From an uncultured delta proteobacterium (lineage in GTDB: Bacteria > Desulfobacterota > Desulfarculia > JACQYL01 > CAWGVV01): a stretch of 64,000 nt of DNA. The stretch is from positions 873,964-937,963 of the forward strand of contig CAWGVV010000002.1 of NCBI GenBank assembly GCA_963826125.1, in the 5' to 3' direction. A model generated the notes under the pieces. It was not told the DNA's origin, did no database searches, and saw only the letters and a program-made list of their open reading frames with translations. How positions within the stretch are numbered: position 1 is the stretch's first letter; every line of letters begins with the position of its first letter. The position numbers and the translations under genes were made by a program. Shown here one piece after another: positions 5,498 through 57,981 of this stretch.

Positions 5498-5513
5498 GGG
5501 TAAAAACTCCTCT

Positions 5514-6038
5514 TCAGGCTTTCTTGAACAGCAGGGCCGCCGCCCGGATCATACGCGACACGGCCGCCACTCCCACCAGAGCCATGCTGACGGGAATCAC
5601 GGATTTTATGATCCAGCGGTAGGGGAGCCCCAGCGGGGAATCCGAACTTTCGTTCAGATGGTAGGAACTCTGTACGAAATCCAGACCGTGGATGAAAAGG
5701 ACGACGACAAGCGGCAGGAGCAGAAAAAGGATTCCCAGGAATTCGACCCATTCCTTCCCTCGGGGCGAAAACTTCCGGTGGGCCAGATCCAGCCGGATGT
5801 GGGAATCCGTCACGATTCCGTACGATATGCCGAACATCACGCACACGGCGTACAGGTGCCATTGGAGTTCTTCCAGGGACACCATGCCTTTTCCGAATAC
5901 ATAGCGCAAAATCACCTGGATCACGATGACGAGGACCGTGGCCACGTTCAGCCAGGCGATGGTCTGACCGATGCGGAGCACGAACCGGTCGAGGGACACA
6001 CAGACGGCGGGGGGTGCTTTGGGTTCCATAGTATTCAA
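5514..6038 (-). CDS. TRAP transporter small permease (DctQ family)
   Basis: 174 aa, four hydrophobic helices, position between DctP and DctM genes. Confidence 0.8.
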   Translation of the reverse strand: MNTMEPKAPPAVCVSLDRFVLRIGQTIAWLNVATVLVIVIQVILRYVFGKGMVSLEELQWHLYAVCVMFGISYGIVTDSHIRLDLAHRKFSPRGKEWVEFLGILFLLLPLVVVLFIHGLDFVQSSYHLNESSDSPLGLPYRWIIKSVIPVSMALVGVAAVSRMIRAAALLFKKA

Positions 6039-6132
6039 TCGTTTCGGATGCTGTTGGTTTTATCACACGGCGGGATAAAGTGGCGGGACCCGAATGGGTC
6101 CCGCCGTCTTTCGTATCTGGCCGTACGTTTCG

Positions 6133-8624: not shown

Positions 8625-8715
8625 GTTCGTTCTCCATCTTGGACCGAAACGGTCGATTTATCTCTCGGAAGGGAAAAAGGCCGCTTCGAGCCCGCCGATT
8701 CCCTCCGGCGCTTCT

Positions 8716-10239: not shown

Positions 10240-10303
10240 GGAGTACACCCGTGTTTGAAAGTTTCCGCAACACGGTCTTTCCGCTCCATGGGGCGGTGTT
10301 TCC

Positions 10304-12133: not shown

Positions 12134-13477
12134 TTACATTTTTGACGGTAGATAGGAAACGAGGCCGGGAAACAGGACGAGGAACATCAGCGCGGCAAAC
12201 AGAATAAAAATAAACGGGATCGTGCCGCTGATGATGGTTTTGATCGGCACGTCCGTTACCGCTTTTATGACGAACAGATTCAACCCCACCGGGGGCGTGA
12301 TCATGCCGATTTCCACCGACAGGGTGGAAACGACGCCGATCCACAGGGGATCGAAGCCAAGGGCGGTAAACGTGGGAAAGAGAAACGGGATTGTCATGAC
12401 GATCATGCTGGTGGGATCGAGGATGCATCCCAGGACGAGCCACAACACCCAGGTCAAAATGAAAAACACCCAGCGGTTGACGCCGAACCCGACGATCAGA
12501 TTGGCCAGTCCGTGTGCGATTCCCAGGAACGTCACGACGTAACTCAACGAGAGTCCGGCGAAAATGAGGAACACGATCATGACGCTGATTCTGGCGCTGC
12601 CCGCGCAGATGTCGAAAAACGTGGAAAGGCGCAGCCTGCCCAATAGGATGATTATCAGGAAGGCGCCCGTAGCCCCCACTCCGGATGCCTCCGTCGCCGT
12701 GGCCATGCCGGTGTACAAGGTACCCAGCACAAGAACGATCAGCACCATCGGCGGAACGATGGTTTTCAGATCGGCCCAAAATTCTCCGGAAGCACTCTTG
12801 CCCGAATCGGCCGTTTCACGAACGGCTCGTTCGGCCGTCCGCTTCGGCGCCTTTTCCACGCCGACGAGGCTAGGATTGAAAGTCGCCCGGAGAACGATGA
12901 AGACACACAACAGGAAGCTTATCAGCAACCCGGGAAGTATTCCGGCGATGAAAAGCTTGGCGATGGACGTTTCCGTGATGATCCCGTACACGACGAACGC
13001 CATGCTGGGCGGTATCATGATGCCGAGCGTGCCGCCGGCGGCGATCACGCCGGTGGAAAAGCCGGGATCGTAGCCCCGGTCCACCATCTCGTTCACCGAT
13101 ATCCGGCCGATCGCCGCCGCGGTAGCCGGACTCGACCCGCATAACGCCGCGAATATGGTGCAGGCCATGGTCGCACTTACGGCGAGTCCGCCCTTCAGCC
13201 GGCTCATCCATTTGCTCAATACCGTGAAGATATCGGTGGCGATACCGCCCTTGGCCAGAATTTCGGCCATCAGAATGAAGAGCGGAGCAATCAGCATCGT
13301 CTGGCTGGTGGCCATGCTGAAGGCAATGGTGCCGATGGGATACAACTGATCGGGTGAAAGAAAGATCACCGTACACAACACCGCCACGAATCCCAAGCCG
13401 AAAGCAACGGGAGTTCCCATTGAAAGAACGATTAACAGGATGAGCACTATGACAAAAACCAGCATTCCGATACCCAT
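12134..13477 (-). CDS. TRAP transporter large permease (DctM family), second system
   Basis: 447-aa polytopic DctM-type protein following DctQ/DctP genes. Confidence 0.9.
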   Translation of the reverse strand: MGIGMLVFVIVLILLIVLSMGTPVAFGLGFVAVLCTVIFLSPDQLYPIGTIAFSMATSQTMLIAPLFILMAEILAKGGIATDIFTVLSKWMSRLKGGLAVSATMACTIFAALCGSSPATAAAIGRISVNEMVDRGYDPGFSTGVIAAGGTLGIMIPPSMAFVVYGIITETSIAKLFIAGILPGLLISFLLCVFIVLRATFNPSLVGVEKAPKRTAERAVRETADSGKSASGEFWADLKTIVPPMVLIVLVLGTLYTGMATATEASGVGATGAFLIIILLGRLRLSTFFDICAGSARISVMIVFLIFAGLSLSYVVTFLGIAHGLANLIVGFGVNRWVFFILTWVLWLVLGCILDPTSMIVMTIPFLFPTFTALGFDPLWIGVVSTLSVEIGMITPPVGLNLFVIKAVTDVPIKTIISGTIPFIFILFAALMFLVLFPGLVSYLPSKM

Positions 13478-13498
13478 AATGGAATCTCCCCAAGCCGA

Positions 13499-14002
13499 TC
13501 ACAGATATTCTTCACCTTTTTGCAGCAGATCACGTATGATGAACACTACGATTGCGGTCATCAGAACGCATCCCACAAGCATACCGGCGTAGAGATAAAC
13601 GACGGGTATCTGAATAACCGCCAGCGTCAGCTTGTTGAGGTGCAGGGCGTCCTTGATAAAGGATAAGGTCGTGCCCAGAAGAACGAGAATGTATACCAAG
13701 GAGAACGCGTAGCCCGCGACGGCCAGAAAGCAGCCGTACGACTTTCCGCATTTGCTTGAGATTACGTTTCTGATGAAATCGACCGACACGTGCGTTTTTT
13801 CCTGGATCGCCGAAGCAGTGCCCAGGAAGAAGGCCCAGATGAGCAGGTACGTGGATACGTCCAGGGTCCAGGAAGTCGGGTGGGAGAAAACGTTCCGGGC
13901 GATCGTTTCGAATGCACAGAGAAAGCTGATGAGGAAGATGATGATTCCTCCGATGACCGCCGCCACGTGGTTGACCTTGCGAACGAATGAGAAAGACGTC
14001 AT
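13499..14002 (-). CDS. TRAP transporter small permease (DctQ family)
   Basis: 167 aa, four TM helices, between DctP and DctM. Confidence 0.85.
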   Translation of the reverse strand: MTSFSFVRKVNHVAAVIGGIIIFLISFLCAFETIARNVFSHPTSWTLDVSTYLLIWAFFLGTASAIQEKTHVSVDFIRNVISSKCGKSYGCFLAVAGYAFSLVYILVLLGTTLSFIKDALHLNKLTLAVIQIPVVYLYAGMLVGCVLMTAIVVFIIRDLLQKGEEYL

Positions 14003-14073
14003 GTTGCGCTTCCTTCCTCATAAAGGCGAAGCGGCCGGTGGAAGAGAACGTTCGCACCGGCCACTCCCCGGAA

Positions 14074-15096
14074 TCACTTCACCGCTCTGAGCGCCTCCAT
14101 CAATGCAACGCCTTCAGGGCCGGCAATGGGCGTGATCTTTTCCCACAACGGTTCCCTCACCTTCCTGAACTGTTCGTTCTGTTCCTTTGTCAGGTGATAC
14201 AGTTTGCAACCCGAGTCCTGTACCGCCTTTTCAAACTGCTGCTCCATCTCCGACGCGTTCTGTATGTTGAAGTTCATCCACTTCTTGACTGACCGTTGCA
14301 CCGCTTCCTGCTGGCTCGCATTCAGGCTTTTCCATGCCTTGTCGCTCATCATCATGCCCCGGAACATCTCCGGGATTTCGGTGACCGTGACGAAGGGAGC
14401 CGATTCATACAGCTTCAGGGCTCCGGCCAGCTGCCAGCCGATGTACCCGACGTCCAGGGTGCCCCTGCCGAGGGCGGTGGGAAGATCGCGCAAGGGGACC
14501 GTAATGGGGCTTCCTCCCCACATCATGATCGCTTCCCCGCCCCATTTGCCAGGGGTACGCACGGTGGCGCCCTTGAAATCCTCGGGGCAGGTAACGAGTT
14601 TTCCGAACCGTTTTATCCCCAGAAAGGTCATGGTGCCCGCATCGTCCAGGCCGAGGTATTTGATGCCGTATTTTGCGAAAATTTTTTCAACGACGGGACG
14701 GGTGACTTTATCCACTTCCAGGTAGTGATTTCCGGGATAAGCGCCGGGTACTTCAAAGGGGGTTAATTCCTTCATGGTGGGACTGAGATAGGCTACGAAA
14801 AAGTGCCCGATATCGACGGTACCCCGTGTGACGGCCTCAAGGATGTCGTGGTCCGAAATGAGCGATCCGGCGGGAAAGGTTTCCACCTTCACCTGCCCTT
14901 GGGTTTCCTCACTCACCGTTTTGGCGAAAAACTCGTATCCTCGTCCCTGTATCCCGGTTGCCGGCGGTGCGTAGCTGAATTTCAGAACCAGAGGTTTTTG
15001 CGCCATGCCTGTCGATGCGCATACCAGCAGAATGAATGAAAAGCACATCAGTACCGTTATGAATCCTCGCGCCCGCTTTTTGCCCTCGATGCCCAT
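14074..15096 (-). CDS. TRAP transporter substrate-binding protein (DctP family), secreted
   Basis: N-terminal hydrophobic signal (FITVLMCFSFILLVCASTGMA) then DctP-type binding protein; first gene of the P-Q-M triplet. Confidence 0.85.
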   Translation of the reverse strand: MGIEGKKRARGFITVLMCFSFILLVCASTGMAQKPLVLKFSYAPPATGIQGRGYEFFAKTVSEETQGQVKVETFPAGSLISDHDILEAVTRGTVDIGHFFVAYLSPTMKELTPFEVPGAYPGNHYLEVDKVTRPVVEKIFAKYGIKYLGLDDAGTMTFLGIKRFGKLVTCPEDFKGATVRTPGKWGGEAIMMWGGSPITVPLRDLPTALGRGTLDVGYIGWQLAGALKLYESAPFVTVTEIPEMFRGMMMSDKAWKSLNASQQEAVQRSVKKWMNFNIQNASEMEQQFEKAVQDSGCKLYHLTKEQNEQFRKVREPLWEKITPIAGPEGVALMEALRAVK

Positions 15097-15940: not shown

Positions 15941-17503
15941 TTATTCCCGATGCTTTTCCTTTTCCGCCGCGACTTCCTCAATCACCTCGGACAGCGGCCG
16001 GATACTATCAACGTGTCCTCCGATTGCCGCGTAGTCTTTCAAGGTCATGGTGTATTCCATGGGGACCACGATGGCGGGCGTCGGGACCCAATGATAGAAG
16101 CCCGTTTGCACGTGCTCCACGTCCACCACGAACGTGATTCCTCCGCCCGGCATGATAAAAGTCGGCGCACCGCCGATCGTTAGCCGCGCCTTGCGCTCCT
16201 TGATGGCTTCGGTCAGTTTCAGGGGCTTACCGGTGATGCCGGAACGGGACGCGCCTCCCCCGCCGCCCACGAACATGGCCGACACCCGCGATTTCTCGCA
16301 TACCGACTGCAGTTCGTTCACCGCCGCGAGTACCCGGGGAGTGGGATCCATGGGGACGAATTCGCCGTTTTCGAACCGGAGCAGGGCATGGTATCCTCCG
16401 GTGGGCTCGGTCACGAGCAGCGTCGTTCCGGGCCGGATCGTGCTCCTGCCCATGTCGATGACGTCCACGGGATTCATGGTGTCGGTTCCCCCGATGCCGT
16501 TCCCCTTGACGCCGAAATACCGCCCCGGGGTGGATTCCCGATACTTCAAAACAATGCCCGAGGGCGGAACCTTGAAATAACGGCCCGTGGCGTGGGCGGA
16601 AAACACGCCGGTGAGCTGGTGGTCCAGAATGATGACTTCGTCGGCGATGCCGTTGAACAGCGGCGAGAAAACGCCGACGGTGGCGCTGCCGCATCCCGCG
16701 GCGATTTTTTCACGTACGGCTCCGTTGATGACCGGCGGCTTCGCCACTTCAAGCACCAGCCGCGCCCCGCCCTCGACGTTCAACGAGACTTTTTTCCGGT
16801 TCGCGATGTCCGTGATGGCCTTGACGGAGAACATTCCGTTCTCACCGCCCGTAAGATGCAGTCCTCCAAGGGAAAGCACCGGGGCATTGTATTCTTCCGT
16901 GGTCACCATCCCAATGCGCCGCTTGAGGTAGGTAACCGCGGCGCCTTCTTCCCCGATGGGCAGATCGGTGTCGATCTTCACCTTTAGTCCGTTGACCGTC
17001 AGCGGGCATTCCGTCACGCACGTAACGCAATCCACGCCGTCCACTTTGTCCTGGACGATGTACGGTGCGGGCCGGAAATCGGGCGAAGTGGTCCCGGCCC
17101 CCATTCCCGTGATGAGGGGCTTTTGGATCGCGGGGTGGTATTCGGGGGGAAGAAGATCGTGGATGGGACTCTGCAGGACCAACGGAATCTTCCTCGTGAC
17201 GGTTCCCCCGTCGTTCGTATAGCGCAGACAGGCTCCGGTTTTTCCCGGTTGGATCGCGCAGCCCACGGGACAGGATGTGCAGATTACGGCGTTCGGATCG
17301 GGGAAAATCTCCCTGACCAGAGCATGTTCCGGGCAGACTTTGACGCACGCGCCGCAGTTGACGCAGTTTTCGTTCGTTCGAGCTTTCCTGTTCACCACCT
17401 CGATTGCATGAACCTGACAGATCAGCTCGCAGATTTTGCAACCGGCACATTTTTCCGAATCGATTTTGATCACAGCCAGCTCCTCATTAGCGGAACGGAT
17501 CAC
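15941..17503 (-). CDS. iron-sulfur protein: N-terminal 2x[4Fe-4S] ferredoxin domain plus large C-terminal domain; architecture resembles 6-hydroxynicotinate-reductase-type enzymes as I recall them
   Basis: CxxCxxCxxxCP twice (CAGCKICELICQ, CVNCGACVKVCP) plus further Cys clusters (CTSCPVGC, CVTCVTECP); 520 aa; specific enzyme assignment is a guess. Confidence 0.6.
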   Translation of the reverse strand: MIRSANEELAVIKIDSEKCAGCKICELICQVHAIEVVNRKARTNENCVNCGACVKVCPEHALVREIFPDPNAVICTSCPVGCAIQPGKTGACLRYTNDGGTVTRKIPLVLQSPIHDLLPPEYHPAIQKPLITGMGAGTTSPDFRPAPYIVQDKVDGVDCVTCVTECPLTVNGLKVKIDTDLPIGEEGAAVTYLKRRIGMVTTEEYNAPVLSLGGLHLTGGENGMFSVKAITDIANRKKVSLNVEGGARLVLEVAKPPVINGAVREKIAAGCGSATVGVFSPLFNGIADEVIILDHQLTGVFSAHATGRYFKVPPSGIVLKYRESTPGRYFGVKGNGIGGTDTMNPVDVIDMGRSTIRPGTTLLVTEPTGGYHALLRFENGEFVPMDPTPRVLAAVNELQSVCEKSRVSAMFVGGGGGASRSGITGKPLKLTEAIKERKARLTIGGAPTFIMPGGGITFVVDVEHVQTGFYHWVPTPAIVVPMEYTMTLKDYAAIGGHVDSIRPLSEVIEEVAAEKEKHRE

Positions 17504-17527
17504 TCGCCGGGTGGTTCGATCATCCGA

Positions 17528-18193
17528 TCAACACCCACATGTGCGCAGCGCGATGACGCGGGCGGGAGCGGCTTCACAGTCGGCAATCTTCAGGGGCAGG
17601 CACACGAAGAACATCCTGCCCTGCACGGCGTCCAGATTGACGAGGCACTCGACCAGGGGAATACCCGCCCCCAGAATGATGTGATGGGAAGGATGGGTCC
17701 GGTCCGAAGCCCTTCCGCCCGCCCGGTTGAGCGGATCGAGAGAAGGCATGTCGACGCCCAGACATTTGATTCCGCGGGCCACGAGCAGATGGGCGGCTTC
17801 CGGGGCAATGGTGCAGAAGCCCGCCGGGTCCGGGCACTTTTCAAATCCGGTGTTCAGGATCGCCACGTCGTTCTTCCGGACGTCCCCGGCCGCCTTTTCC
17901 AGGTCTTCCACCGTGATGACGCTGCCCGGCGCCTTATACTTCAGGTCCACCACCACGCCTTCCCCGACCAGCCGGTCGAGGCCCGTTTCGTGAATGTTTC
18001 CCCCGCCGTCGATTACGTGCCGGGGGGCATCCACATGGGTTCCCGCGTGCACGACCGTTTCATACTTCGTGACTTGGATGCCGTTCTCGTCGTGGTTCCG
18101 AATTCTCGTCAACGTCGGTTGGGGAATACCCGGGAAAAGACGCATTCCCTGTTCAATACGCATGCTGAGGTCGATAATTCCGTCATGTTTCAT
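17528..18193 (-). CDS. cyclase-family metal-dependent hydrolase (kynurenine-formamidase/KynB-like)
   Basis: HxGTHxDxPxH metal-binding motif (VVHAGTHVDAPRH), ~220 aa. Confidence 0.8.
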   Translation of the reverse strand: MKHDGIIDLSMRIEQGMRLFPGIPQPTLTRIRNHDENGIQVTKYETVVHAGTHVDAPRHVIDGGGNIHETGLDRLVGEGVVVDLKYKAPGSVITVEDLEKAAGDVRKNDVAILNTGFEKCPDPAGFCTIAPEAAHLLVARGIKCLGVDMPSLDPLNRAGGRASDRTHPSHHIILGAGIPLVECLVNLDAVQGRMFFVCLPLKIADCEAAPARVIALRTCGC

Positions 18194-18277
18194 TGGACAC
18201 TCTCCCTTATGGTTTCACCGATGGCATTTCGGTTAAAGGCAGTGGAGGAAAGACGGGTCCCGCCTCCCCGCGAGTCG

Positions 18278-18982
18278 CTATTTTTCCTTGGAACCGTTCG
18301 CCAGCCGAACCGATGCACTATCCGCTTTCTCTCGCGAATTGCGGAGGTTCACCATGAATCTGTTCATGGATTCGAGAATATGGCGTTCGAAATGTTCCTT
18401 TATGTTGTTTTTGTCTCGTTCCACCAGGGCATCCACCAGGACGTCATGTTCCGTAATGATGTCCGAAACCTTCTTTCTGGAGCCGGCGTTCGTTGCGGCG
18501 AGCATGCGGGTGTGCGCGGAAATGGTTTTCCAACTGAGGTGAAGTCTCTGGTGATCGGCGAGCACGAAAATTTCTTCGTGGAATTGCATGTGCAGTTCGA
18601 AGGTGTCCGCAACGTCGGCGCTGTCGTTCATTCCATGGATAATGCTTCTCAACCTGTCGACGTCGTACGGTTGAAGAATATCCGACGCCAGAGCCGCCGC
18701 ATGGCATTCCAGGAGAGCCCGCAAGGTATAGATTTCCTCAATGTCCTTTTCGGTGAAGCTCTTTACGTAGGTTCCCCGCCTCGGATAGGTGACGGTCAGA
18801 CCTTCTCGTTCCAGTTCCACGAGGGCTTCCCTTACCGGGGCGCGGCTTATCCCAAGCGATTGGGCTATTTCGGATTCGAGAACTCTTTCGTCGGGCTTGA
18901 GTTCACCGGAAAGAATTTGGTGCCTCAGAACCCGCACCACCTGTTTTGAAAGGTTCGCGCTGTCGAGCTTCAGCAGTTTCAT
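18278..18982 (-). CDS. GntR/FadR-family transcriptional regulator (wHTH + FCD domain)
   Basis: wHTH region LKPDERVLESEIAQSLGISRAPVREALVELEREGL then FCD-type helical domain; ATG at MKLLKL with GGAGG upstream preferred over the TTG track start. Confidence 0.75.
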   Translation of the reverse strand: MKLLKLDSANLSKQVVRVLRHQILSGELKPDERVLESEIAQSLGISRAPVREALVELEREGLTVTYPRRGTYVKSFTEKDIEEIYTLRALLECHAAALASDILQPYDVDRLRSIIHGMNDSADVADTFELHMQFHEEIFVLADHQRLHLSWKTISAHTRMLAATNAGSRKKVSDIITEHDVLVDALVERDKNNIKEHFERHILESMNRFMVNLRNSREKADSASVRLANGSKEK

Positions 18983-21664: not shown

Positions 21665-21953
21665 CGGGCTATTTCGTTGTTAAGCTATTGAAAATAATAT
21701 TATATTTTCTCTACTCATGCCGATTCGCCATTGCCGGCTGTTGCATTTTTCAACACCGGCCGTGCCGTGGCGGGCGGGGAAAAGGAAGAAAAGCCCCATT
21801 CCTCCCGACAAAATGGTCGTTGCAGATGGCAACAGAGGCCATGTTGCAAAAAGCAACGCATTGACAGAAGGAGAAAAGACGTGGAAAATTCAAATGCTTC
21901 GCGGTCCGGACAAGAAAAAGGAAAACGCCGCGGGCGGAGAGGGGGACAGGCGC

Positions 21954-23963
21954 ATGTTCTTCAAGAAAACGTCCGAGACCGGCACCGAGAAGGAAGAGGA
22001 GAGCCAGGAAATACAGGACCTCCGTAAGTCGGTGGAACAGGCGCGCATGCCCGACCGGGTGAAGACGATCGCCGGGAAGGAACTGGAGCGGTTGGCCAAG
22101 ACCGACCCCTCCCTGGCCGAGTACGGCATAGGACTGAACTACCTGGAATTCATCCTCTCCCTGCCCTGGGAGAAGTCGTCCAAGGACAACCTGGACTTGT
22201 CCCGCGCCGAACGGATCCTCGACGAGGAACACTACGCGCTGGCTCCGGTCAAGGAGCGGGTGCTCGAATACCTGGCGTCCAACATAAAGATCGGGTTGAA
22301 ACCCACCCGCATGATGGTGGTCGACGACGAAAAGATCGCCCTGGAGAACGTGGCCTACGCCCTACGCAAGGAAGGCCATGAGGTGCATACGGCGGAAAAC
22401 GGCCAGGAGGCACTGGACATTCTCCGGCAGTTCGATTTCGACCTGGTGGTGACCGACCTCAAAATGCGGAACGTGGACGGTATGCAGCTGCTGGAGCGGG
22501 TCAAGGCGGAATCGCCCGAGACGGAACTCATTCTGGTCACCGGGTACGCCACCGTGGACACCGCCGTCGACGCTCTAAAGAAAGGCGCGGCCCAGTATCT
22601 GCCCAAACCGTTGAACCTGGATACCCTGCGGCAGTCGGTGAACGAGATCCTCGAACAGCGGCGGAAGGTTCACGTATCCCAGGGGCCAGTGCTCTGCTTT
22701 GCCGGACCTCCGGGCACGGGCAAAACGTCCATCGGCCGATCCATCGCCAAGGCCCTGGAACGGAGTTTCATCCGCGTGTCGGTGGCGGGACTCCGGGACG
22801 AAGCGGAAATGCGGGGACACCGCCGCACCTACGTGGGGGCCATGCCGGGAAGGATTCTTTCCGAAGTCCGGCGCATAGGGGTAAACAATCCGGTGTTCAT
22901 GCTGGACGAACTGGACAAAATCGGTCAGGACTTCCGGGGAGACCCCGCGTCGGTCCTACTCGAGGTGCTGGACCCCGAACAGAACAAACGCTTCCTGGAC
23001 CATTACGTGGACATTCCCTTCGATCTGTCCCGCGTGATGTTCATCACCACGGCCAATGCCATCGAACGGCTGTCCCGACCTCTTCTGGACCGGATGGAGG
23101 TCATCCACTTTTCCAGCTACACCTTGCGGGAAAAGTCGTCCATCGCTTCGCATTATCTGGTTCCGCGCCAGCTCAAGGCCAACGGGTTGTCTCCCCGTGA
23201 GGTGGAGTTTTCAAGGGAGGCGCTGGACAAGATCATCGGCGACTACACGGACGAAGCGGGCCTCCGGAACCTGGAGCGGGAAGTGGGGAGTGTCTGCCGC
23301 AAGGTGAACCGCCTCCTGTTGCAGGACCGCCTCAGCCTTCCGAAAAAGGTGGAAGCGGCCGACGTGGAAGCGCTCCTGGGACCGCCGCGGTTTTCCCGGC
23401 TGTCCGCTTCCGATGCACGCGTTGCGGGCGTCACCACGGGGCTGGTATGGACGGAACACGGCGGCCACGTCATTTATGTTGAAACGGCCCGGATGAAGGG
23501 CCAGGGAAAGCTCATCATGACCGGTTCCCTGGGGGAGGTGTTGAAAGAGTCCGCCCAGACCGCCCTCAGCCACATTCGCAGCAACGCAGCCGAATTCGGC
23601 ATCGATCCCGAATTTTTCGAAACGAGCGACGTCCACGTCCACATTCCGGCCGGCTCGATCCCCAAGGACGGTCCCTCCGCGGGGGTCACCATCGCCATGG
23701 CCCTGGTTTCGTTGCTCACCGGCAAGCCGGTGCGCAAGGGGGTCGCCATGTCCGGGGAGCTCACCCTGAGCGGCCGGGTGCTGCCCGTGAGCGGCTTGAG
23801 GGAAAAACTGCTGGCGGCGCAGCGTGCGGGTATCTCCACGGTGATCCTGCCCGCGGCCAACGCCACGGAGATCGCCGCTTTGGAACCCGACGTGCGTACC
23901 GCAACGAACATTGTCCAGGTGGAAAACTTCCGGGGAGCGGTACAAAACGCTTTGTCGGAATAG
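21954..23963 (+). CDS. lon: ATP-dependent Lon protease lacking the Lon N-domain, with a response-regulator receiver (REC) domain inserted between the conserved pre-AAA helix and the Walker A motif
   Basis: …PVKERVLEYLA | REC (MMVVDDEKIA … DLVVTDLKMRNVDG … LVTGYAT … KKGAAQYLPKP) | GPVLCFAGPPGTGKTS … MLDELDK … Lon_C with KDGPSAG Ser and downstream Lys; start at ATG MFFKK (GGGGGA RBS), alternative ATG at 21894. Confidence 0.8.
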   Translation: MFFKKTSETGTEKEEESQEIQDLRKSVEQARMPDRVKTIAGKELERLAKTDPSLAEYGIGLNYLEFILSLPWEKSSKDNLDLSRAERILDEEHYALAPVKERVLEYLASNIKIGLKPTRMMVVDDEKIALENVAYALRKEGHEVHTAENGQEALDILRQFDFDLVVTDLKMRNVDGMQLLERVKAESPETELILVTGYATVDTAVDALKKGAAQYLPKPLNLDTLRQSVNEILEQRRKVHVSQGPVLCFAGPPGTGKTSIGRSIAKALERSFIRVSVAGLRDEAEMRGHRRTYVGAMPGRILSEVRRIGVNNPVFMLDELDKIGQDFRGDPASVLLEVLDPEQNKRFLDHYVDIPFDLSRVMFITTANAIERLSRPLLDRMEVIHFSSYTLREKSSIASHYLVPRQLKANGLSPREVEFSREALDKIIGDYTDEAGLRNLEREVGSVCRKVNRLLLQDRLSLPKKVEAADVEALLGPPRFSRLSASDARVAGVTTGLVWTEHGGHVIYVETARMKGQGKLIMTGSLGEVLKESAQTALSHIRSNAAEFGIDPEFFETSDVHVHIPAGSIPKDGPSAGVTIAMALVSLLTGKPVRKGVAMSGELTLSGRVLPVSGLREKLLAAQRAGISTVILPAANATEIAALEPDVRTATNIVQVENFRGAVQNALSE

Positions 23964-36940: not shown

Positions 36941-36978
36941 AATAAAAAAAGCGCCGCCGCAAACCATGCGGCGACGCC
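36941..36978 (-). terminator. rho-independent terminator for hdrA (stem GGCGUCGCCGCA/UGCGGCGGCGC then U7 on the minus strand)
   Basis: read directly; sits between the convergent ABC-GGDEF and hdrA genes. Confidence 0.75.
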
Positions 36979-37000
36979 TTGAAAAGCACGTTCTTTGGTT

Positions 37001-38536
37001 TCAGGCCACGCGTTTTTCCCGCGTTGCGATAACCACTTCGGCCGCCCGCGCTGCGGCGCTCGAAGCCTGCGCCACCGACTCCGGAATGTCCATGGGGGCT
37101 TGGGCGCATCCGCACACGAAGATTCCTTCCCGGCTCGTGTTCAGCGGGTCCACCGAACTGGTCCGGATGAAACGGTACTCATCGAGTTCCACATCGAGGA
37201 CCTCGGCGAGTTTTTCGATTCCGGCGGGGGGCACGCAGGCGGTGGCCAGCACCACCATGTCGACCTCCATGGATTTCACCTGCCGCTCGCGGGTATCTTC
37301 GTACCAGACGAGAGGATTATGGTTTTCGCCCTCGGTAATTTCGGCCACCCGGCCCCGGATGTAGGTAATGCCGCTGTCGCGGCCGCCGCGCACCTTGTAC
37401 TCCTCAAATCCCTTGCCCACGGCGCGGATGTCCATGCCGAAGACGAAGGATTGCGTGCGATGCTCGTGCTCGCGGGCGATGATGGCTTCCTTGACCGAAT
37501 GCATGCAGCAGTAGCCGGAGCAGAAAGAATTGAAGCGAAAGTCGCGGCTGCCCACGCACTGGATGAACGCCAGCCGAGTGGCCACGTCGAAGTGAGCCGC
37601 CACCGCTTCCAGTTCATGGAGCCGTTTCTCCGAAGCCGTGTGTTCCCGTGAAGCGTTGAGCAATTCCTGCTCGTCCGGCGAAAGGCCGCCCTCCCCGCCC
37701 TCGGCCTTCTTCTCCAGGTCCGCGGCCGGTACTTGAGCCTTCTTTTCCAGCCGCTCGACATTCTTGGTCGATTTGGAAACCTTTTTCTTGAGTTCCTCGA
37801 TTTCCACCTCGGCCTTCATGTCCGAAGGCCGGTCCAGGTGTCCGCCCGTGGGACCGCTGGCGCTCAGCAGCCGCTCGAATTCCATGGCGGTGACCACGTT
37901 GTCGATTCTTCCGTAGCCGTACTCGGGAATAATGGAGGGATCGAACACGTCGTAGCCCGTGGAGACGACGATGGCGCCCACCTCAAGGGTGACGATGGTG
38001 TCGGTCTGTTCGAAATCAACCGCCCCGGCCTGGCAGACCTTGGCGCACACGCCGCACTTTTTCCCCTGGCCCAGTTGGCGGCAGTGTTCGGCATCGATGG
38101 TGAAGACGGAAGGGATTCCCTGAGCGAAGTACTTGTAAATGGCCTTGCGCTCTCCAAATCCTTCGTTGTAGGCATCCACGACCGACGTAGGGCACTTTTC
38201 GGCGCACGATCCGCATCCCGTGCAGCGGCTGTCGTTTACGTAGCGTGCCTTTCTGCGTACGGTGACCGTGAAGTTCCCGGCGCTGCCCTCGATCTTCTCC
38301 ACCTCGCTGTAGGCCATCAACTCAATGTTGGGATGCCGACCGGCATCCAGCAGCTTCGGCGAGAGAATTCAGATGGCGCAGTCGTTGGTGGGGAAGGTCT
38401 TGTCCAGTTGAGCCATCTTCCCGCCGATGCTGGGAAGCTTCTCCACCAGTTTCACCTTGAGTCCCATTTCCGCCAGATCCAGAGAACTCTGAATGCCGGC
38501 GATGCCTCCGCCTATTACCAGAACATCCTGACTCAC
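37001..38536 (-). CDS. hdrA: heterodisulfide reductase subunit A (HdrA), selenocysteine-containing: in-frame UGA at 38369..38371
   Basis: N-terminus [16 protein letters not shown] (FAD fold), then [33 protein letters not shown] continuous through the UGA at the position where Sec-type HdrA carries selenocysteine; GTG start with GGAGG RBS; the track splits the gene at the UGA. Confidence 0.85.
38331..38348 (-). promoter_or_regulatory. SECIS-like hairpin GGAUGCC-GGUC-GGCAUCC starting 20 nt 3' of the hdrA UGA
   Basis: perfect 7-bp stem with GGUC apical loop, like the E. coli fdhF SECIS apical loop. Confidence 0.6.
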
Positions 38537-39662: not shown

Positions 39663-40127
39663 TCAAGCCGCCTTGGCATGGGACGGCCCGAGGGAGCGCA
39701 CCTGATCGGTGAACTGGCGAGCCGTTTCGGCAAATTTAGGACCTTCCGCGGAGGAGATCCATTCCAGTTTCACCCGGCCTTCTTCGATTCCCAGCACGCT
39801 CAACAGGTCTTTGACCTGTTCCATGGTGGCCTTGCACTTAACATTACCATCCAGGTAATGACAGTCGCCGATGTGTCAGCCGGCCACCAGCACGCCGTCC
39901 GCCCCCTTGGCGAACGAACGCAGGATGAAGTTGGGGTTGATCCGCCCTGTGCACATGACCCGGATGATCCGCATGGAGGCGGGATACTGCAGCCGGCTCA
40001 CGCCCGCCAGATCCGCGCCGGCGTATGCACACCAGTTGCAGCAGAACGCCAGGATTTTGGGAGCAAATTCATCAGACATATTCAATTCCGTATATGAGGA
40101 ATGGTTCGTTTCGCCGCGAGTCGTCAT
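39663..40127 (-). CDS. mvhD: methyl-viologen-reducing hydrogenase delta-subunit-like protein (MvhD), selenocysteine-containing: in-frame UGA at 39876..39878
   Basis: …[18 protein letters not shown]…MCTGRINP…[20 protein letters not shown]… = the GCHxGDCHY motif with the first Cys replaced by UGA; ORF continues 70 codons to TGA at 39663..39665; start ATG at 40127 or 40079. Confidence 0.75.
39842..39860 (-). promoter_or_regulatory. SECIS-like hairpin CAUUACC-UGGAU-GGUAAUG starting 15 nt 3' of the mvhD UGA
   Basis: perfect 7-bp stem read directly. Confidence 0.5.
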
Positions 40128-40382
40128 CCTCGACAAGAGTTAGACCGAAGATATCATTCACAGGTTGAGTTTTCTGTTTTTTTTATGAACAGAATAAGCG
40201 CAGAGAGTACACTATACGGAGGCGGGGGGAATCTGTCAAGCAAGGTTTAATTAAGTGATATCGCGTGTTTTATCGGTAAGTATTCCACTCCGACGCCGGA
40301 TGTTTCGCCACGGTTCACGATTGATTTACCGTTCTTGCAGGGGCAAATGGCCGTTTGTCCCATCGTTAAGCAGCATACGACG

Positions 40383-50075: not shown

Positions 50076-50532
50076 TTTCCGGGGCGGGAACCGTAGGAGC
50101 TCTGTGTGCCCGTCGTGAGATTCTCAAAGGGCGGACGGTTATTTTTCTGTTCATGCTCTGATGCTCAGCGAACGGTACGTGAACCGATCCCCCACCCGGA
50201 CCATCCCCCGCTGGGAGGCGGGAGGGGCTGAGTTCGCCCCGATACCCGATCCGCTCGCCTGACGCCGATCCACTGTCCGACACCCCCCCGTTCGGGCTGA
50301 GCGATGAGAGCCCGGCCGTTGGCGTAAGGCGTGAAGAACAAACAGCGGTCCGCGTATCGGCGATTTGTCATCTCGAACGATAGCGGGAAATTGCACAGCC
50401 GGGGGCGGCGGCTGTGCTCCACAAGCGGATCGTTTCGCCAGGACAATTTATGCTGAGCACGGGCGCCTCGCCAGTGCGTCGGGGAAACCACTCTGAGCGT
50501 CGAAGGATTTCGCCGTTGATTGAGGGGGTTTT

Positions 50533-50572
50533 GAAAAAAGAGAGGCCGCCCGATGGGCGGCCTCTCTTTTTT
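50533..50572. terminator. bidirectional rho-independent terminator (AGAGAGGCCGCCC-GATG-GGCGGCCTCTCT flanked by A-run and T-run), ~30 nt after the hppA stop
   Basis: read directly. Confidence 0.8.
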
Positions 50573-50596
50573 TCATCGTGCTGCGGAGTGGATCGA

Positions 50597-52600
50597 TTAC
50601 TTCCAGTAGGCCACGAGCAGCGGAGCGATAACCAGGGACACGACCGAGATCAGCTTGATGAGGATGTTCATGGTCGGGCCCGACGTATCCTTGAAAGGAT
50701 CGCCGACGGTATCGCCCACAACGGCTGCCTTGTGGTTGGCCGAACCCTTGCCACCGTAATGGCCGGATTCGATGAGCTTCTTGGCGTTGTCCCATGCGCC
50801 GCCGGCATTGGCCATGAACAGGGCCAGCAGAACGCCGGTGAGGGTGGCGCCGACGAGCATTCCGCCCAGCGCGCCCTTACCGATGATAAAGCCGACTGCG
50901 ACCGGGGAAAGAACACCCACGAGGCCGGGAGCGATCATCATCTTCAAAGCGCCCTTGGTGCAGATGTCGACGCAGGTGGCCGGGTCGGGTTTGCCGGTTC
51001 CTTCCATGAGTCCGGGAATTTCGCGGAACTGGCGGCGGATTTCTTCCACCATCTGCCCGGCGGCCTTGCCCACGGCGGTCATGGTCATGGCGGCGACAAG
51101 GTAGGGAACGATGCCGCCGATGAACACACCGATGACCACATAAGGATCGGTGATGTCGATGGTGTCCATGTGGGCGGCCTGGGTGTAAGCCACGAACAGA
51201 GCCAGGGCGGTCAGAGCGGCGGAGCCGATGGCAAAGCCCTTGCCGATGGCGGCCGTGGTGTTCCCCAAGGCGTCCAGTTTATCGGTGATGGCTCGGGTCT
51301 CGGGGCCGAGTTCGGCCATTTCGGAAATACCGCCCGCATTGTCGGCGATGGGGCCGTACGCATCGACGGTCATGGTCACGCCCACCGTGGAAAGCATGCC
51401 GACGGCGGAGATGCCCACGCCGTACATGCCGCCCGTGATGTAGGCGACGTAGGTGGCCACGCAGATGCCCAGCAGCGGCAGTGCGGTACTTTCAAAGCCC
51501 ACCGCGATGCCGGTGATGATGACCGTGGCCGGGCCGGTAGCCGACTGCGCAGCGATCTTGTGCACCGGAGTGGACGAAGTGTAGTACTCGGCCAGAAGGC
51601 CGATGATGATACCCACCACCAGGCCGGAAATAACCGACCAGAAAACACCCAGGGGCAGACCGATGAGCGTCACGATGTAATAGGTTGCCACAATGAGGCC
51701 GGCTGCGCCGATGAACGTGGAGTAGCGCAGTGCCGCGGCAGGCTCGGCTCCCTGCAATACCTTGATGGAACCCACGCCGATGAACGATGCCAACAGACCG
51801 CCCATGACGACCAGAAGCGGTGCGGCCATGTAAGCCGAGCGCAGCGCTTCCTGATCCTGGGGCAGCACCATGGTGGCGGCGATGGCGATGGTGGCGATGA
51901 TGGCGCCGACGTAGGATTCAAAGATGTCCGCACCCATGCCCGCGATGTCGCCGACGTTGTCACCGACGTTATCGGCGATGACGCCGGGGTTGCGCGGGTC
52001 GTCTTCGGGAATGCCCGCTTCCACTTTGCCCACCAGGTCGGAGCCGACGTCCGCGGCCTTGGTGTAGATACCGCCGCCCATGCGGGCGAACAGGGCGATG
52101 GAGCTGGCGCCCATGGCGAAGCCGTTAATGATGCTGGCCGTTGCGGGGTCCTTCCCGTAGATATAGAAGAAGATACCCACGCCGATGAGGCCCAGGCTGG
52201 CCACCGAGAGGCCCATGACGGAACCGCTGAGGTAGCTGATGTTGAGTGCCCTGGCCTGTCCGTGCTTGTTGGCGGCTTCGGCGGTCCTCGAGTTGCCGCG
52301 AGTGGCGGCGCTCATGCCGAAGTAGCCCGCCAGGATCGAGCAAATTGCACCGGAACCGTAGGCGATGGACGTTTCCCAATTGATTCCAAAGCCGAGAAGC
52401 ACGAACACCGCGGCGGCAAAGAAAAAGAGAATACTGTATTCCCTCTTGAGGAATACCATGGCCCCTTCATGGATCATGGTCTCCAGCTCTTGCATGCGTT
52501 CGTTGCCGTTCGGCTGACTTTTCACATAGGAATAAATCAGGAAGGCAATGACGATGCCGAGCCCGCCCAAATAGGGAGCGTAAACCGTTAAGTGCAGCAT
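50597..52600 (-). CDS. hppA: membrane-bound proton/sodium-translocating pyrophosphatase
   Basis: [57 protein letters not shown] signatures; start at MLHLTV avoids overlap with pth. Confidence 0.9.
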
Positions 52601-52625
52601 CTTTTCTCCAACCTCCTTTTGGTAA

Positions 52626-53222
52626 TTAATTAAAAGCATTCATGGCTTTGGAAATCCCTTCCCGGATCCAGGTTTCCACCGCCATTACGGCTTTTTCCAC
52701 TGCTTCTCCGGCCTGGTCAGTCTCATCCGAATAAAAAGAATTGAGCACGAATTCCTCGACAGGTTCACTGTAACGGGGACGTCCGATCCCCACCTTGAGG
52801 CGGAGGAACGCCTTCGTTCCCAACTCCCTGATGATGGAATCAACCCCTTTGTGTCCTCCGGACCCTCCCCCGTGAGCAAACTTCATTCTGCCCAAGGGAA
52901 GATCGAGGTCGTCATGCACAATCAAAACGTGATCTAAAGGAATCTTGTAGTAGGCTATCCATTTTTGAACGGCTTGGCCGCTCAAGTTCATGTACGTCTG
53001 GGGTTTGACCGTCAGCACATGCGTCGCCCCCCAGCGGTGTTCCCGCCACAAACTCTGAAACTTCTCCCGTTCGGCACCGGCGGAGAGCGAACGGAGGAAG
53101 TGATGGGCCGCCGAAGAGTCGATATGATGACCGGGAAAACGATCGATCACCTGAAAGCCGACGTTATGCCGGGTCTTCTCGTATTGCCTTCCAGGATTTC
53201 CCAGTCCCACTAAGAGATGCAC
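52626..53222 (-). CDS. pth: peptidyl-tRNA hydrolase
   Basis: LLVGLGNPG…H N VGF N-terminus and GHKGVDS motif. Confidence 0.9.
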
Positions 53223-55231: not shown

Positions 55232-56080
55232 TCAGAAGCCGCGAACCAGCGATGCCTTCCACCCGTGCCGGGCGACTGCTTCCCGATACGAGGCTTCAGC
55301 AGGTTCCCGCCGAGAGAACATCCCGAAAACGGTGGGGCCGCTCCCGCTCATAAGCGCCTGCTCGGCGCCGAGTGATACGAGGGTTTCGCGGATGGCCCGC
55401 AATTCAGGGTAGGCGGCCAGCGTTACGCTTTCCAGATCGTTGTGCAGGTTCTCAACCGCCCATGTGGCAATCCCAGGGCCATTTTTTATAGGACTGCGGG
55501 TAGTTATTGTCAACTCCATTTTCAGATTGCGGTACACCCACGCAGTGGGGACTTCAAGGGGGGGATGCACCAGCACGAACCATTTCCGCGGCAGCGTCAC
55601 TGGGGTGAGCCGCTCGCCGACACCCTCCCCCACGGCGGCGGAGACTTCCCGCAGGAAGAACGACACGTCGGCGCCGAGGGAGAGCCCCATCTCCTCCAAC
55701 CGTTCGTTCGAGAGGGGACGGCCGAAAAGGTGGTTCAGGCCGAGGAGCGCGGAGGCCGCATCGCTGCTGCCTCCGCCGAGTCCTGCGGCCAGCGGGATCG
55801 ACTTGCGGAGCGTCAGCTCGACGCCCGCTTCCGATCCCGTGGTCCGCAGGAAAAGATCGGCCGCCCGCCATACGAGATTCCGCTCGTCCTCCGGCAGGAC
55901 GCTGTCCGGGCAGGACAGCGCCACCGAAGGAGTGTTCGAACGGCCGACCCGCAGACGGTCGAACAGCGACACTCGTTGGAATACCGTTTCCAATTCGTGG
56001 TAGCCGTCGGGCCGCCTGCCCACCACCCGCAGGTGGAGGTTGATCTTGGCCGGACAGAGAATTTCAATGGCTGCGGCCAT
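55232..56080 (-). CDS. ispE: 4-diphosphocytidyl-2-C-methyl-D-erythritol kinase
   Basis: GHMP-kinase motifs (PAKINLHL, LAAGLGGGSSDA). Confidence 0.9.
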   Translation of the reverse strand: MAAAIEILCPAKINLHLRVVGRRPDGYHELETVFQRVSLFDRLRVGRSNTPSVALSCPDSVLPEDERNLVWRAADLFLRTTGSEAGVELTLRKSIPLAAGLGGGSSDAASALLGLNHLFGRPLSNERLEEMGLSLGADVSFFLREVSAAVGEGVGERLTPVTLPRKWFVLVHPPLEVPTAWVYRNLKMELTITTRSPIKNGPGIATWAVENLHNDLESVTLAAYPELRAIRETLVSLGAEQALMSGSGPTVFGMFSRREPAEASYREAVARHGWKASLVRGF

Positions 56081-56086
56081 CTGCGC

Positions 56087-57520
56087 CTACCCCAGCGACA
56101 GCGTGACAAAGAAGGTGTTGTTGCCCCGTCTGACCAGCAGCAGCACGTCCTCTTTGGCAGGAAGACTCTTCACCACGCGGGAGTAGTCGTCCATGCTCTT
56201 GATGGGCTGTCGGTTGATCTCCTCGATGACGTCTCCGGGCCGCAATCCCGCCTCAGCAGCGGTGCCTCCCTGTACCACGTCATTGATTACCACGCCGTTC
56301 TCCTGGTCGATTCCCAGCTGCTTGGCCAGTTCCGGCGTGAGTTCCTGCACGGTGAAGCCCAGTTTGTCCTCTTCGCCCGGCGTGGCGGTGGCAGCGCCCG
56401 TTTTCGTTTCCTTCATTTCACCCACGGTGACTTCGATCGCCTTTTCCTTGCCGTTTCGGATCACCTTGATGGGCACGGAGGTACCGACGGCCGTGGTAGC
56501 CACCATGGTGGGAAGGTCGGACCATTCTTCGATCTTCTTCCCGTTATATTCCACGATCACGTCGCCGCGCTTGATGCCTGCCTTCTCGGCGGGACTGCCG
56601 GCGGGAACGTCAGCCACCAGGGCGCCCTTGTCGTCCTTGAGCGAGAAAGACTTCATGAGTTCGGGGGTGATCTTCTGAATCATGACGCCGAGCCAGCCGC
56701 GGACCACTTTTCCGTGTTCCTTGAGCTGTGCCACGATGGTTTTGACCATGTTGGACGGAATGGCGAAGCCGATTCCCTGGCCGCTGGCCACGATGGCCGT
56801 GTTGACACCCACGACCTGTCCGTCCATGTTGATAAGCGGACCGCCGCTGTTGCCCGGATTGATGGAAGCGTCGGTCTGCAGAAAATCGTCATACGGGCCG
56901 GCACCGATGTTGCGCTGTTTGGCGCTGATGATCCCCTGGGTTACGGTGTTCTCCAGGCCGAAAGGATTCCCCACCGCCAGTACCCAGTCTCCAACCCTGA
57001 TGGCGTCGGAATCGCCCAACGGCAGATAGGGGAAAGGACCGTCCGAATCCAGCTTGATCAGGGCGATGTCCGTTTTGGGATCGCGCCCGACGATCTTGGC
57101 CGGATAGGTGTGTTTGTCGGAAAGGCGGACTTCGATTTTGTCCGCGTCGTCAACCACGTGGTTGTTGGTGATGATGTACCCCTTCGAATCGAAGACAAAT
57201 CCGCTCCCCAATGCGCGCTGCTTGTATTCGCGAGGGATCTGGTTGCCGAAGAATCGGCGCATAAAATCTTCGAACGGGTCCTCGCCCCGGTGAAATTGAC
57301 CGGGGGAAGGCTGAAGGCCCTGGGTCTTCACATCCTTGACCACGCTGATGTTGACCACGGCCGGTCCTACCTGTTTCGCCAGATCGGCAAAAGAAGGCAG
57401 CGTCGCCATCGCGGCCGGCGCCGGTGCTGGCATTGCCAGAAGCAGGAACAGGAGCATTGCCGCCAGCATATGAACGGGCCTCGTAAATCCCTTCGGTTCA
57501 AAGTTGATTCGTTTGTTCAT
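56087..57520 (-). CDS. degP: periplasmic serine endoprotease DegP/HtrA (Do family) with two PDZ domains
   Basis: signal peptide; trypsin-like catalytic GNSGGPL; two PDZ repeats. Confidence 0.9.
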   Translation of the reverse strand: MNKRINFEPKGFTRPVHMLAAMLLFLLLAMPAPAPAAMATLPSFADLAKQVGPAVVNISVVKDVKTQGLQPSPGQFHRGEDPFEDFMRRFFGNQIPREYKQRALGSGFVFDSKGYIITNNHVVDDADKIEVRLSDKHTYPAKIVGRDPKTDIALIKLDSDGPFPYLPLGDSDAIRVGDWVLAVGNPFGLENTVTQGIISAKQRNIGAGPYDDFLQTDASINPGNSGGPLINMDGQVVGVNTAIVASGQGIGFAIPSNMVKTIVAQLKEHGKVVRGWLGVMIQKITPELMKSFSLKDDKGALVADVPAGSPAEKAGIKRGDVIVEYNGKKIEEWSDLPTMVATTAVGTSVPIKVIRNGKEKAIEVTVGEMKETKTGAATATPGEEDKLGFTVQELTPELAKQLGIDQENGVVINDVVQGGTAAEAGLRPGDVIEEINRQPIKSMDDYSRVVKSLPAKEDVLLLVRRGNNTFFVTLSLG

Positions 57521-57540
57521 CTTGCGGTCTCCCTTCTTTG

Positions 57541-57981
57541 TTATACCCTTACATTGAGGTACTTCATCCTCATCTCGTAAAGGATGTAATCGATCATCTG
57601 TTGTTCGTCGCTACTGAGGTTTCCCTTGGTCTTGTCTTTCAGCATTGCGATCATGTCGATGGTGTGTTTGGCCAGGGCGAGGTCTTTTCTCGTCTGACCC
57701 GAACTCGGATCGGGGGCTTCTCCCATGTGCACCAGACTCGATGAGAAGAGGGACCAGATGAACGTGGAGAACGTCACTTCGGGAAGCTGAGCCGATTGCC
57801 GTTGTTCTCCCGCCTCGTCGTTGGCGGGACGGTCCATCTCCGGTCCGCTTTCCCGCTCCGGAGGCGACTCCTGCCCGGATGTTCCGGTTTGCGTCGGCTC
57901 CGTCGGTTTTTCGGCGACCTTCTCCTCTTCGCCCAGTTTTCGCCTGTCCTTGATCACGAACCCTCGATCGTCTTCACTCAT
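57541..57981 (-). CDS. DUF1844-family protein
   Basis: acidic N-terminal half then conserved LPEVTFSTFIWSL…GEAPDP…LALAKHTIDMIAML…KTKGNL block. Confidence 0.65.
   Translation of the reverse strand: MSEDDRGFVIKDRRKLGEEEKVAEKPTEPTQTGTSGQESPPERESGPEMDRPANDEAGEQRQSAQLPEVTFSTFIWSLFSSSLVHMGEAPDPSSGQTRKDLALAKHTIDMIAMLKDKTKGNLSSDEQQMIDYILYEMRMKYLNVRV

Follow-up and report, generated by a model that had tools for sequence, protein, structure and literature searches.

The locus considered here raises a single question: how is a UGA codon read that stands in frame within a gene of the MvhD/FlpD family? The gene, called mvhD below, lies in a stretch of 64,000 nucleotides of contig CAWGVV010000002.1 from an uncultured delta proteobacterium; this whole 64-kb stretch is referred to as the window. 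An earlier note, made from the sequence alone, had proposed that the codon is recoded as selenocysteine (Sec). We consider it very probable that the UGA, at codon 68, is decoded as Sec, which would give an intact 138-residue MvhD-type selenoprotein.

The mvhD gene and its family

The frame opened by the ATG at 40079..40077 on the minus strand is interrupted by an internal TGA at 39878..39876 and then continues for 70 further codons to a TGA at 39665..39663. The latter is the real stop of mvhD, giving a C-terminus that reads ...SHAKAA, and a single nucleotide (39662) lies between it and the ATG (39661) of the following hdrD-like gene. Both the same-frame continuation and the one-nucleotide spacing had been claimed in the earlier note, and translation bears out the coordinates. 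The ATG is the most likely start, as it is placed where the homologues begin. The 86-codon open reading frame (ORF) of the ORF track arises by mechanical ORF calling from the most upstream TTG, at 40136, and is a truncation artefact.

With cysteine (Cys) put at the UGA, the 138-residue product matches PF02662 (FlpD/MvhD) with 186.1 bits (cut-off 22.3) across the entire profile (1-123/123). The two sides of the UGA also match independently. The 67 residues before it cover profile positions 1-59 (E=6.6e-29) and the 70 residues after it cover positions 61-123 (E=4.5e-18), the latter alignment to MvhD C-termini having been set beforehand as a test. The sole PF02662 column left out between the two half matches is the first Cys of GCHxGDCHY, and Cys homologues align there, in agreement with the claim that the UGA replaces the first Cys of the CHxGDCHY motif. 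Judged by these scores, the split domain match is far above chance. The rest of the cysteine constellation (CNWC, Cys43 and GCHxGDCHY) is present in the product: C14, C17, C43 and C73 are invariant in the homologue alignment, the N-terminal CCNWC motif of the product is Cys throughout, and residue 68, encoded by UGA here, is Cys at the aligned position of homologues that lack the TGA.

The best match among solved structures is 5odc_D (E=5.3e-51, 133 residues, residues 4-136). Six solved MvhD/VhuD chains align across the UGA site, the M. maripaludis VhuD chain 9sfi_K ranking sixth, and the five chains with displayed alignments have Cys there. Two narrower NCBIfam models scored below their cut-offs: NF045873 (archaeal VhuD equivalog) gave 135.1 bits against 215, and NF040770 (fused HdrA2-MvhD) gave 185.8 bits against 1100, over profile positions 646-775 only. 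mvhD stands by itself upstream of hdrA and is not fused to the HdrA C-terminus as in the HdrA2 type. By these sequence comparisons the product is a general member of the MvhD family and not a VhuD equivalog. In the methanogen complex the HdrA flavin receives electrons from a [2Fe-2S] cluster in MvhD (PMC6019823), and by analogy the mvhD product would bind a [2Fe-2S] cluster and pass electrons to HdrA.

Conservation of the UGA and of the hairpin that follows it

As relatives we took the 80 best loci obtained when GTDB representatives, one genome for each species, were scanned. These loci come mostly from Desulfobacteraceae, Syntrophobacteraceae and metagenome-assembled genomes (MAGs) of other Thermodesulfobacteriota. 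A TGA occupies exactly the residue-68 codon in the best-matching mvhD of approximately 70 of the 80 loci, including those of the cultured Desulfospira joergensenii DSM 10085 and Desulfoferrobacter suflitae DRH4. TGC or TGT is found at the site in archaeal, Sedimentisphaerales and Rikenellaceae loci. Across 74 TGA-type relatives there are no stops in the 64 codons after the UGA, and mean differences from the window over these codons are 22, 15 and 37 sites at codon positions 1, 2 and 3, respectively. This third-position excess indicates that coding selection acts downstream of the UGA.

The earlier note had suggested checking whether paralogues encode Cys at this position. The window itself contains a single MvhD-family gene, the mvhD of this operon, so the answer comes from the relatives, and it is mixed. 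Many Syntrophobacteraceae-type loci have a second mvhD approximately 5 kb downstream with Cys at the site (GCHFGDCHYI[TS]GN), and in several Desulfobacteraceae-type loci the second paralogue also has TGA, with an identical stem sequence. Sec and Cys versions of mvhD therefore coexist in the lineage, as they do in Desulfobacterium autotrophicum (PMC2702500). The downstream second Sec-type mvhD of some related loci (GVDGVFVGG*HLGDCHYLYGNYA) means that a neighbourhood can hold several Sec codons.

The UGA is followed by a hairpin (CAUUACC-UGGAU-GGUAAUG) that begins 15 nt after it, as had been claimed. Its apical loop begins 22 nt after the UGA and has an invariant G at position 2. The part that is evolutionarily fixed is a 6-bp core, AUUACC/GGUAAU (39859..39843), which in the relatives takes the form AUUACC-NGNAN-GGUAAU; the window also has a seventh pair, C39860-G39842, which some relatives lack. 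An extended lower stem is predicted for the window sequence, and RNAalifold across the relatives retains only the 6-bp hairpin with its 5-nt loop; this extension is not conserved and is weakly supported by the fold predictions.

We compared the hairpin codons between 78 distinct TGA-type sequences (the window, the best-matching mvhD genes of the loci, and eight second-copy paralogues) and a control of 21 Cys-type homologues at the same codons. Counting from the UGA, codons +6, +7, +8, +10 and +11 are CAT, TAC, CTG or CAG, GGT and AAT in all 78 TGA-type sequences, with a third-position entropy of zero. The same codons are less uniform in the control: CAT at +6 in 9/21 (Fisher p 3e-10), TAC at +7 in 17/21 (p 1.6e-3), GGT at +10 in 6/21 (p 2.5e-13) and AAT at +11 in 15/21 (p 5e-5), each against 78/78. 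The loop codon +9 (NAY) ends in T or C among the TGA-type sequences, and the synonymous entropy at neighbouring residues is 0.5-1.9 bits (His+1 0.71, Gly+3 1.85, Asp+4 0.52, Cys+5 0.94, Gly-1 1.47), these flanking residues being as conserved as those of the hairpin arms. Elsewhere, third positions differ by approximately 55% between TGA-type genes, so shared ancestry cannot explain the frozen hairpin codons. The hairpin is part of the minimum free energy (MFE) fold in 72/78 Sec-type segments and in 2/21 Cys-type segments. The sequence of the 17-nt element does not vary between more than 70 species, nor between paralogues. These patterns argue for selection on the hairpin at the RNA level, confined to UGA-type genes.

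In Sedimentisphaerales and Rikenellaceae MAGs, Cys-type (TGT/TGC) mvhD genes retain CAT TAC CTN GAR GGT AAT (L071:6199-6240, L076:2935-2976); such genes may have changed recently from Sec to Cys, or may be forerunners of the Sec form.

The published model of bacterial selenocysteine insertion sequence (SECIS) elements specifies a loop of 3-9 nt, a stem of 4-16 bp, a G in the first two loop positions, a distance from UGA to loop of 16-37 nt and an MFE of at most -7.5 kcal/mol (PMC13188914). The mvhD hairpin falls within the geometric limits, with a 5-nt loop, a 7-bp stem, G at position 2 and a spacing of 22 nt. For the energy, the extended structure gives -12.8 (centroid) to -16.5 kcal/mol and the bare 7-bp hairpin -7.3, just short of -7.5.

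Several results weigh against decoding as Sec. The hairpin is thermodynamically unexceptional (the 69-nt fold has z = -0.42 against shuffles), so fold energy was left unused as evidence, and a 60-nt segment of the window folds differently at MFE. Rfam gave no SECIS-like match, either at gathering thresholds on the whole window or at E<=10 on 39700..39950. RNAalifold on the TGA-type relatives found no double-sided covariation in the mvhD hairpin, and the argument for RNA-level constraint is one of synonymous-site freezing. The stem pairs wobble positions with second-codon positions already set by the amino acids, from which it is predicted that Sec forms need CAU for His, UAC for Tyr, GGU for Gly and AAU for Asn; with all stem pairs invariant and the partner bases fixed in this way, no covariation statistic is possible for this hairpin. 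Finally, the 64-kb window, out of a source contig of 2.67 Mb, contains no selA, selB, selD or tRNA-Sec (selC) gene. The search covered essentially all credible window ORFs, annotated on both strands, together with ARAGORN and Rfam, which found only tRNA-Gln. Strong indirect evidence that Sec machinery exists in the organism comes from two UGAs at Sec positions (the second is in hdrA, see below), each with a SECIS-type hairpin that appears to be under selection.

Of the other ways to read the UGA, the one that survives best is still very improbable. It holds that the codon is read as Trp, Gly or Cys, either because the code is reassigned or by SECIS-independent near-cognate readthrough. A search of 5.8 billion proteins returned full-length mvhD homologues of up to 80% identity, and to the seven nearest the source gene callers gave 'W' at the site, as this reading would have it; the more distant database homologues have Cys. 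For both of the nearest homologues checked (2/7), the 'W' is a TGA in the DNA, on metagenome contigs of approximately 1 kb, and both sequences fail to translate under table 11. Evidently the source applied a TGA=Trp table to short contigs. In true non-TGA homologues the site is Cys and never Trp. TGA also ends many window genes at the ends of their family profiles, exactly so for NifS (TIGR03402, 1-379/379), NifU, SerA and PRPP synthase, and it ends mvhD itself, which excludes a TGA=Trp or TGA=Gly code; genetic-code reassignment was ruled out because TGA terminates full-length family matches. Plain readthrough would leave the frozen downstream hairpin unexplained. The seven 'W' entries (P0001-P0005, P0015 and P0022; L082:457-873, L083:98-517) are themselves an instance of systematic mis-annotation of Sec-type MvhD in public metagenome predictions.

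Slightly less probable again is a nonsense mutation at the UGA, or true early termination there, leaving a pseudogene or a 67-residue N-terminal fragment. Mechanical ORF calling does halt at the UGA, and the window lacks the Sec machinery searched for above. Such a fragment would be without the GDCHY half of the cysteine constellation, and the 70 residues downstream match FlpD by themselves. The same TGA in the best-matching mvhD of approximately 70 species-level relatives, followed by an open frame under coding selection, disposes of the pseudogene, sequencing-error and early-stop readings. The preference of the earlier note for recoding over nonsense mutation is upheld by this shared TGA, by the open downstream frame and by the frozen hairpin codons.

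The last two alternatives have a negligible chance of being right. A split gene, in which residues 1-67 assemble after translation with a separately started C-terminal piece, could draw on a same-frame, ATG-started 53-codon ORF (39824..39663), but this start drops the invariant Cys73 along with the post-UGA residues that are most conserved, nothing except the UGA separates the halves, and what is conserved behind the UGA has the shape of a SECIS hairpin and not that of a ribosome-binding site. If the TGA were instead a misread or misassembled TGC or TGT, one base change would restore Cys, but the same TGA occurs in approximately 70 independent genomes and also in metagenome contigs, the window itself carries the Sec-specific hairpin codon pattern, and an independent Logan assembly (a 1.5-kb contig from another run) has an identical hdrD-like protein preceded by an uninspected 68-residue product that ends 1 nt before it.

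The operon and its surroundings

Decoding as Sec gains a second case in the same operon (Table 1). The earlier note had counted two Sec codons in an operon of mvhD, an hdrD-like gene and hdrA; mvhD and hdrA each carry an in-frame UGA, but the hdrD-like gene is an uninterrupted 373-codon ORF with a TAA stop and no in-frame UGA. CxxU is the listed Sec site of Sec-type HdrA, and the hdrA UGA of the window falls there. The hdrA UGA has its own downstream hairpin. One stem pair of this hairpin lies under the Val/Ala and Arg codons: 44 loci have U-A there, 12 have U-G and 6, the window among them, have C-G, and none has a mismatch. This is a compensatory change from U-A to C-G that combines a Val-to-Ala replacement with a change in the Arg wobble base.

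Table 1. Features of the mvhD operon, with positions in the window.
Feature	Position	Strand	Basis
Promoter-like TTGACA-17 nt-TATAGT, 11/12 consensus matches, ~130 nt upstream of the mvhD start	40211..40239	-	Consensus match
mvhD/FlpD-family gene, 138 codons including one in-frame UGA	39663..40079	-	Translation, Pfam PF02662
In-frame UGA, proposed Sec codon (residue 68), first Cys of GCHxGDCHY	39876..39878	-	Translation, profile alignment
Predicted extended lower stem (GC.ACU ... AGUGC)	39834..39868	-	MFE and centroid folds agree, window sequence only
SECIS-type hairpin of mvhD, CAUUACC-UGGAU-GGUAAUG	39842..39860	-	Fold and synonymous-site conservation
hdrD-like (HdrC+HdrB-type) iron-sulfur protein gene, 373 aa	38540..39661	-	One 4Fe-4S dicluster domain, two CCG domains
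hdrA-like flavoprotein gene, GTG start 38535, 511 codons, in-frame UGA 38371..38369 in TNDCAI-U-ILSPK	37001..38535	-	Translation, profiles
SECIS-type hairpin of hdrA, GGAUGCC-GGUC-GGCAUCC, loop from 27 nt after the hdrA UGA	38331..38348	-	Sequence, relatives
Intrinsic-terminator-like hairpin, 14-bp stem with 9 G-C pairs, then TTTTTATTT; 20 nt past the hdrA stop	36948..36980	-	Sequence

The promoter-like and terminator-like elements would bracket mvhD, the hdrD-like gene and hdrA as one intact transcription unit. Most of the 80 loci repeat the order of mvhD(UGA) followed by hdrA(UGA), some with an hdrD-like gene in between and some lacking it, and NDCAI*ILSP comes after mvhD in most related loci. 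Genes on either side of the operon are unrelated to it: upstream lies an alpha/beta hydrolase gene, and downstream a gene for an ABC-ATPase fusion that runs convergently. The operon adjoins neither a hydrogenase gene (mvhA/G, frhA) nor one for formate dehydrogenase, and there are no bamB/C or bamGHI genes near it.

The HdrA-like protein is short (511 aa), and its first match to the NCBIfam HdrA2 model covers profile positions 138-379 only. An insertion of approximately 85 highly charged residues (37530..37790, minus strand) splits the match to HdrA models. In many of the related loci (L001, L002, L004, L008-L010 and L013 among them) a second hdrA paralogue of the Sec type (NDCAM*IISP or NDCSM*IISP) lies 3-4.6 kb upstream of mvhD.

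A window-wide scan for in-frame TGA readthrough yielded 182 candidates. In this sequence of 59% GC the great majority of them are frames open by chance or neighbouring genes that share a frame, and the scan is not informative. One of these arrangements involves a gene of the Pfam Cyclase family (17528..18193, minus strand) that ends in a TGA at 17528..17530 and is followed 24 nt on, in the same frame, by a 520-aa protein with an N-terminal 4Fe-4S ferredoxin domain (15941..18193 for the whole). Two adjacent genes are more likely here than readthrough at 17528..17530.

Elsewhere in the window, the longest ORFs of four plus-strand stretches, 8623..10323, 17123..18949, 50414..52591 and 55442..57580, are spurious antisense frames. 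The real genes there are on the minus strand and have high GC content at third codon positions (GC3), among them a galactarate-dehydratase-like gene (8716..10248), a Na+-pyrophosphatase gene (50597..52639), ispE (55232..56080) and degP (56087..57520). A nickel-pincer-cofactor-dependent isomerase (NCBIfam 'group 22', 452 bits) is encoded at 7332..8624 on the minus strand, among two TRAP transporter gene sets, an aldehyde dehydrogenase gene and the galactarate-dehydratase-like gene; this neighbourhood, with the stretches 4118..7209 and 12134..15096, may be an organic-acid utilisation cluster. A Lon protease homologue on the plus strand (21717..23963) contains a response-regulator receiver domain (residues ~197-320), either inserted or N-terminal, which is an unusual fusion.

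Known systems and the proposed role of Sec

MvhD/VhuD/FrhD (PF02662) figures among the selenoprotein families with experimental verification, and selenoprotein operons of the type frhD/mvhD-hdrA(-glpC), with a Sec-type hdrA and a GlpC/HdrD-like gene, have been described in Deltaproteobacteria (PMC13188914). Desulfobacterium autotrophicum HRM2 has four Sec-type mvhD genes, mvhD1/2/3/5 (PMC2702500). The mvhD of the window resembles these genes in family and in context: it belongs to the same PF02662, comes from the same kind of host, and adjoins a Sec-type hdrA and an HdrD/GlpC-like CCG protein, and the SECIS element is likewise within the coding sequence, just after the UGA. The published operon holds four selenoproteins whereas that of the window holds two, its GlpC/HdrD-like gene being in the Cys form. 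A Sec-type MvhD beside hdrA in Deltaproteobacteria is already known, and the window gene is one more member of the family, of a kind that is ordinary among bacteria resembling sulfate reducers.

The MvhD of the MvhAGD-HdrABC complex from Methanothermococcus thermolithotrophicus (5odc chain D) has the same CCNWC ... C ... GCHxGDCHY constellation as the window protein. All five solved MvhD/VhuD chains displayed are archaeal and carry Cys at the site; their partner is a [NiFe] hydrogenase, which the window locus lacks. Archaeal VhuD belongs to the same fold family and, like the window MvhD, has Sec in place of a conserved Cys, but its SECIS element is located in the 3' untranslated region, not directly after the UGA. 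It is listed with a CxxU motif and two Sec residues (PMC13188914).

BamF of the class II benzoyl-CoA reductase of Geobacter metallireducens is a bacterial Sec-containing MvhD homologue whose partners, the HdrA-like BamE and the HdrD-like BamD, make up the same protein trio as this operon (bioRxiv 10.64898/2026.04.10.717634). BamF is more than 100 residues longer than the window MvhD, having a second Rossmann domain and a winged helix, and its Sec19 belongs to the N-terminal motif, as opposed to the GU-HxGDCHY site of the window protein (bioRxiv 10.64898/2026.04.10.717634). Membership in the BamF group was ruled out by the 138-residue length, the all-Cys N-terminal CCNWC motif and the non-bam neighbours.

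The mvhD hairpin is similar to the SECIS of Escherichia coli fdhF in being a small hairpin within the ORF after the UGA, with an early loop G and at a permitted distance. It differs in sequence, and no bulged U, a feature of the fdhF SECIS element, was found in it. The hdrA element of the window has a GGUC loop and so resembles the fdhF type.

We infer the steps from SelB binding to Sec insertion, and likewise the physiological electron donor and acceptor, as follows. If mvhD behaves like E. coli fdhF, the hairpin AUUACC-UGGAU-GGUAAU, which starts 15-16 nt past the UGA, would be the binding site of SelB loaded with Sec-tRNA(Sec), and SelB would deliver Sec to the ribosome and allow its insertion at codon 68. 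Translation would then run for 70 codons more to the real UGA stop, where a hairpin of this kind is absent. The full-length MvhD would fold around its [2Fe-2S] cluster and relay single electrons to the HdrA flavin, as MvhD does in the complexes of methanogens (PMC6019823; PMC13518236). Its place would be in a soluble MvhD/HdrD-like/HdrA module whose HdrA would also contain Sec, with the HdrD-like subunit as the probable high-potential output.

What Sec68 itself does can be approached through the conserved cysteines, of which the MvhD family has five. The N-terminal site, where Sec19 stands in BamF, has been called a non-ligand 'cysteine near the cluster' (bioRxiv 10.64898/2026.04.10.717634), and by elimination position 68 would then be among the four ligands. 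We found no residue-level statement of which Cys ligate the [2Fe-2S] cluster of MvhD in the accessible literature. The peptide motif HY(L/Q)(D/Y)GN, which spans the hairpin arms, separates the Sec forms from the Cys forms. Our tentative proposal, which we think somewhat more likely to prove wrong than right, is that Sec68 is a selenolate ligand, and not a nearby redox-active residue, that tunes the [2Fe-2S] entry cluster of an uncharacterised MvhD/HdrD-like/short-HdrA module, with the SECIS element dictating HY(L/Q)(D/Y)GN.

General knowledge of selenoproteins is unchanged by this case; what changes is how the locus and its relatives are annotated and found. mvhD should be annotated as a 138-residue selenoprotein (transl_except 39878..39876), and hdrA likewise at 38371..38369. 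Public protein sets repeat the error in two forms, as truncated fragments and as false Trp. The invariant hairpin, which freezes five codons, may serve as a search signature for Sec-type MvhD genes. For the organism, the finding would mark a user of Sec with a soluble MvhD/HdrD-like/HdrA redox module, which fits an anaerobic lifestyle of the Desulfobacterota type.

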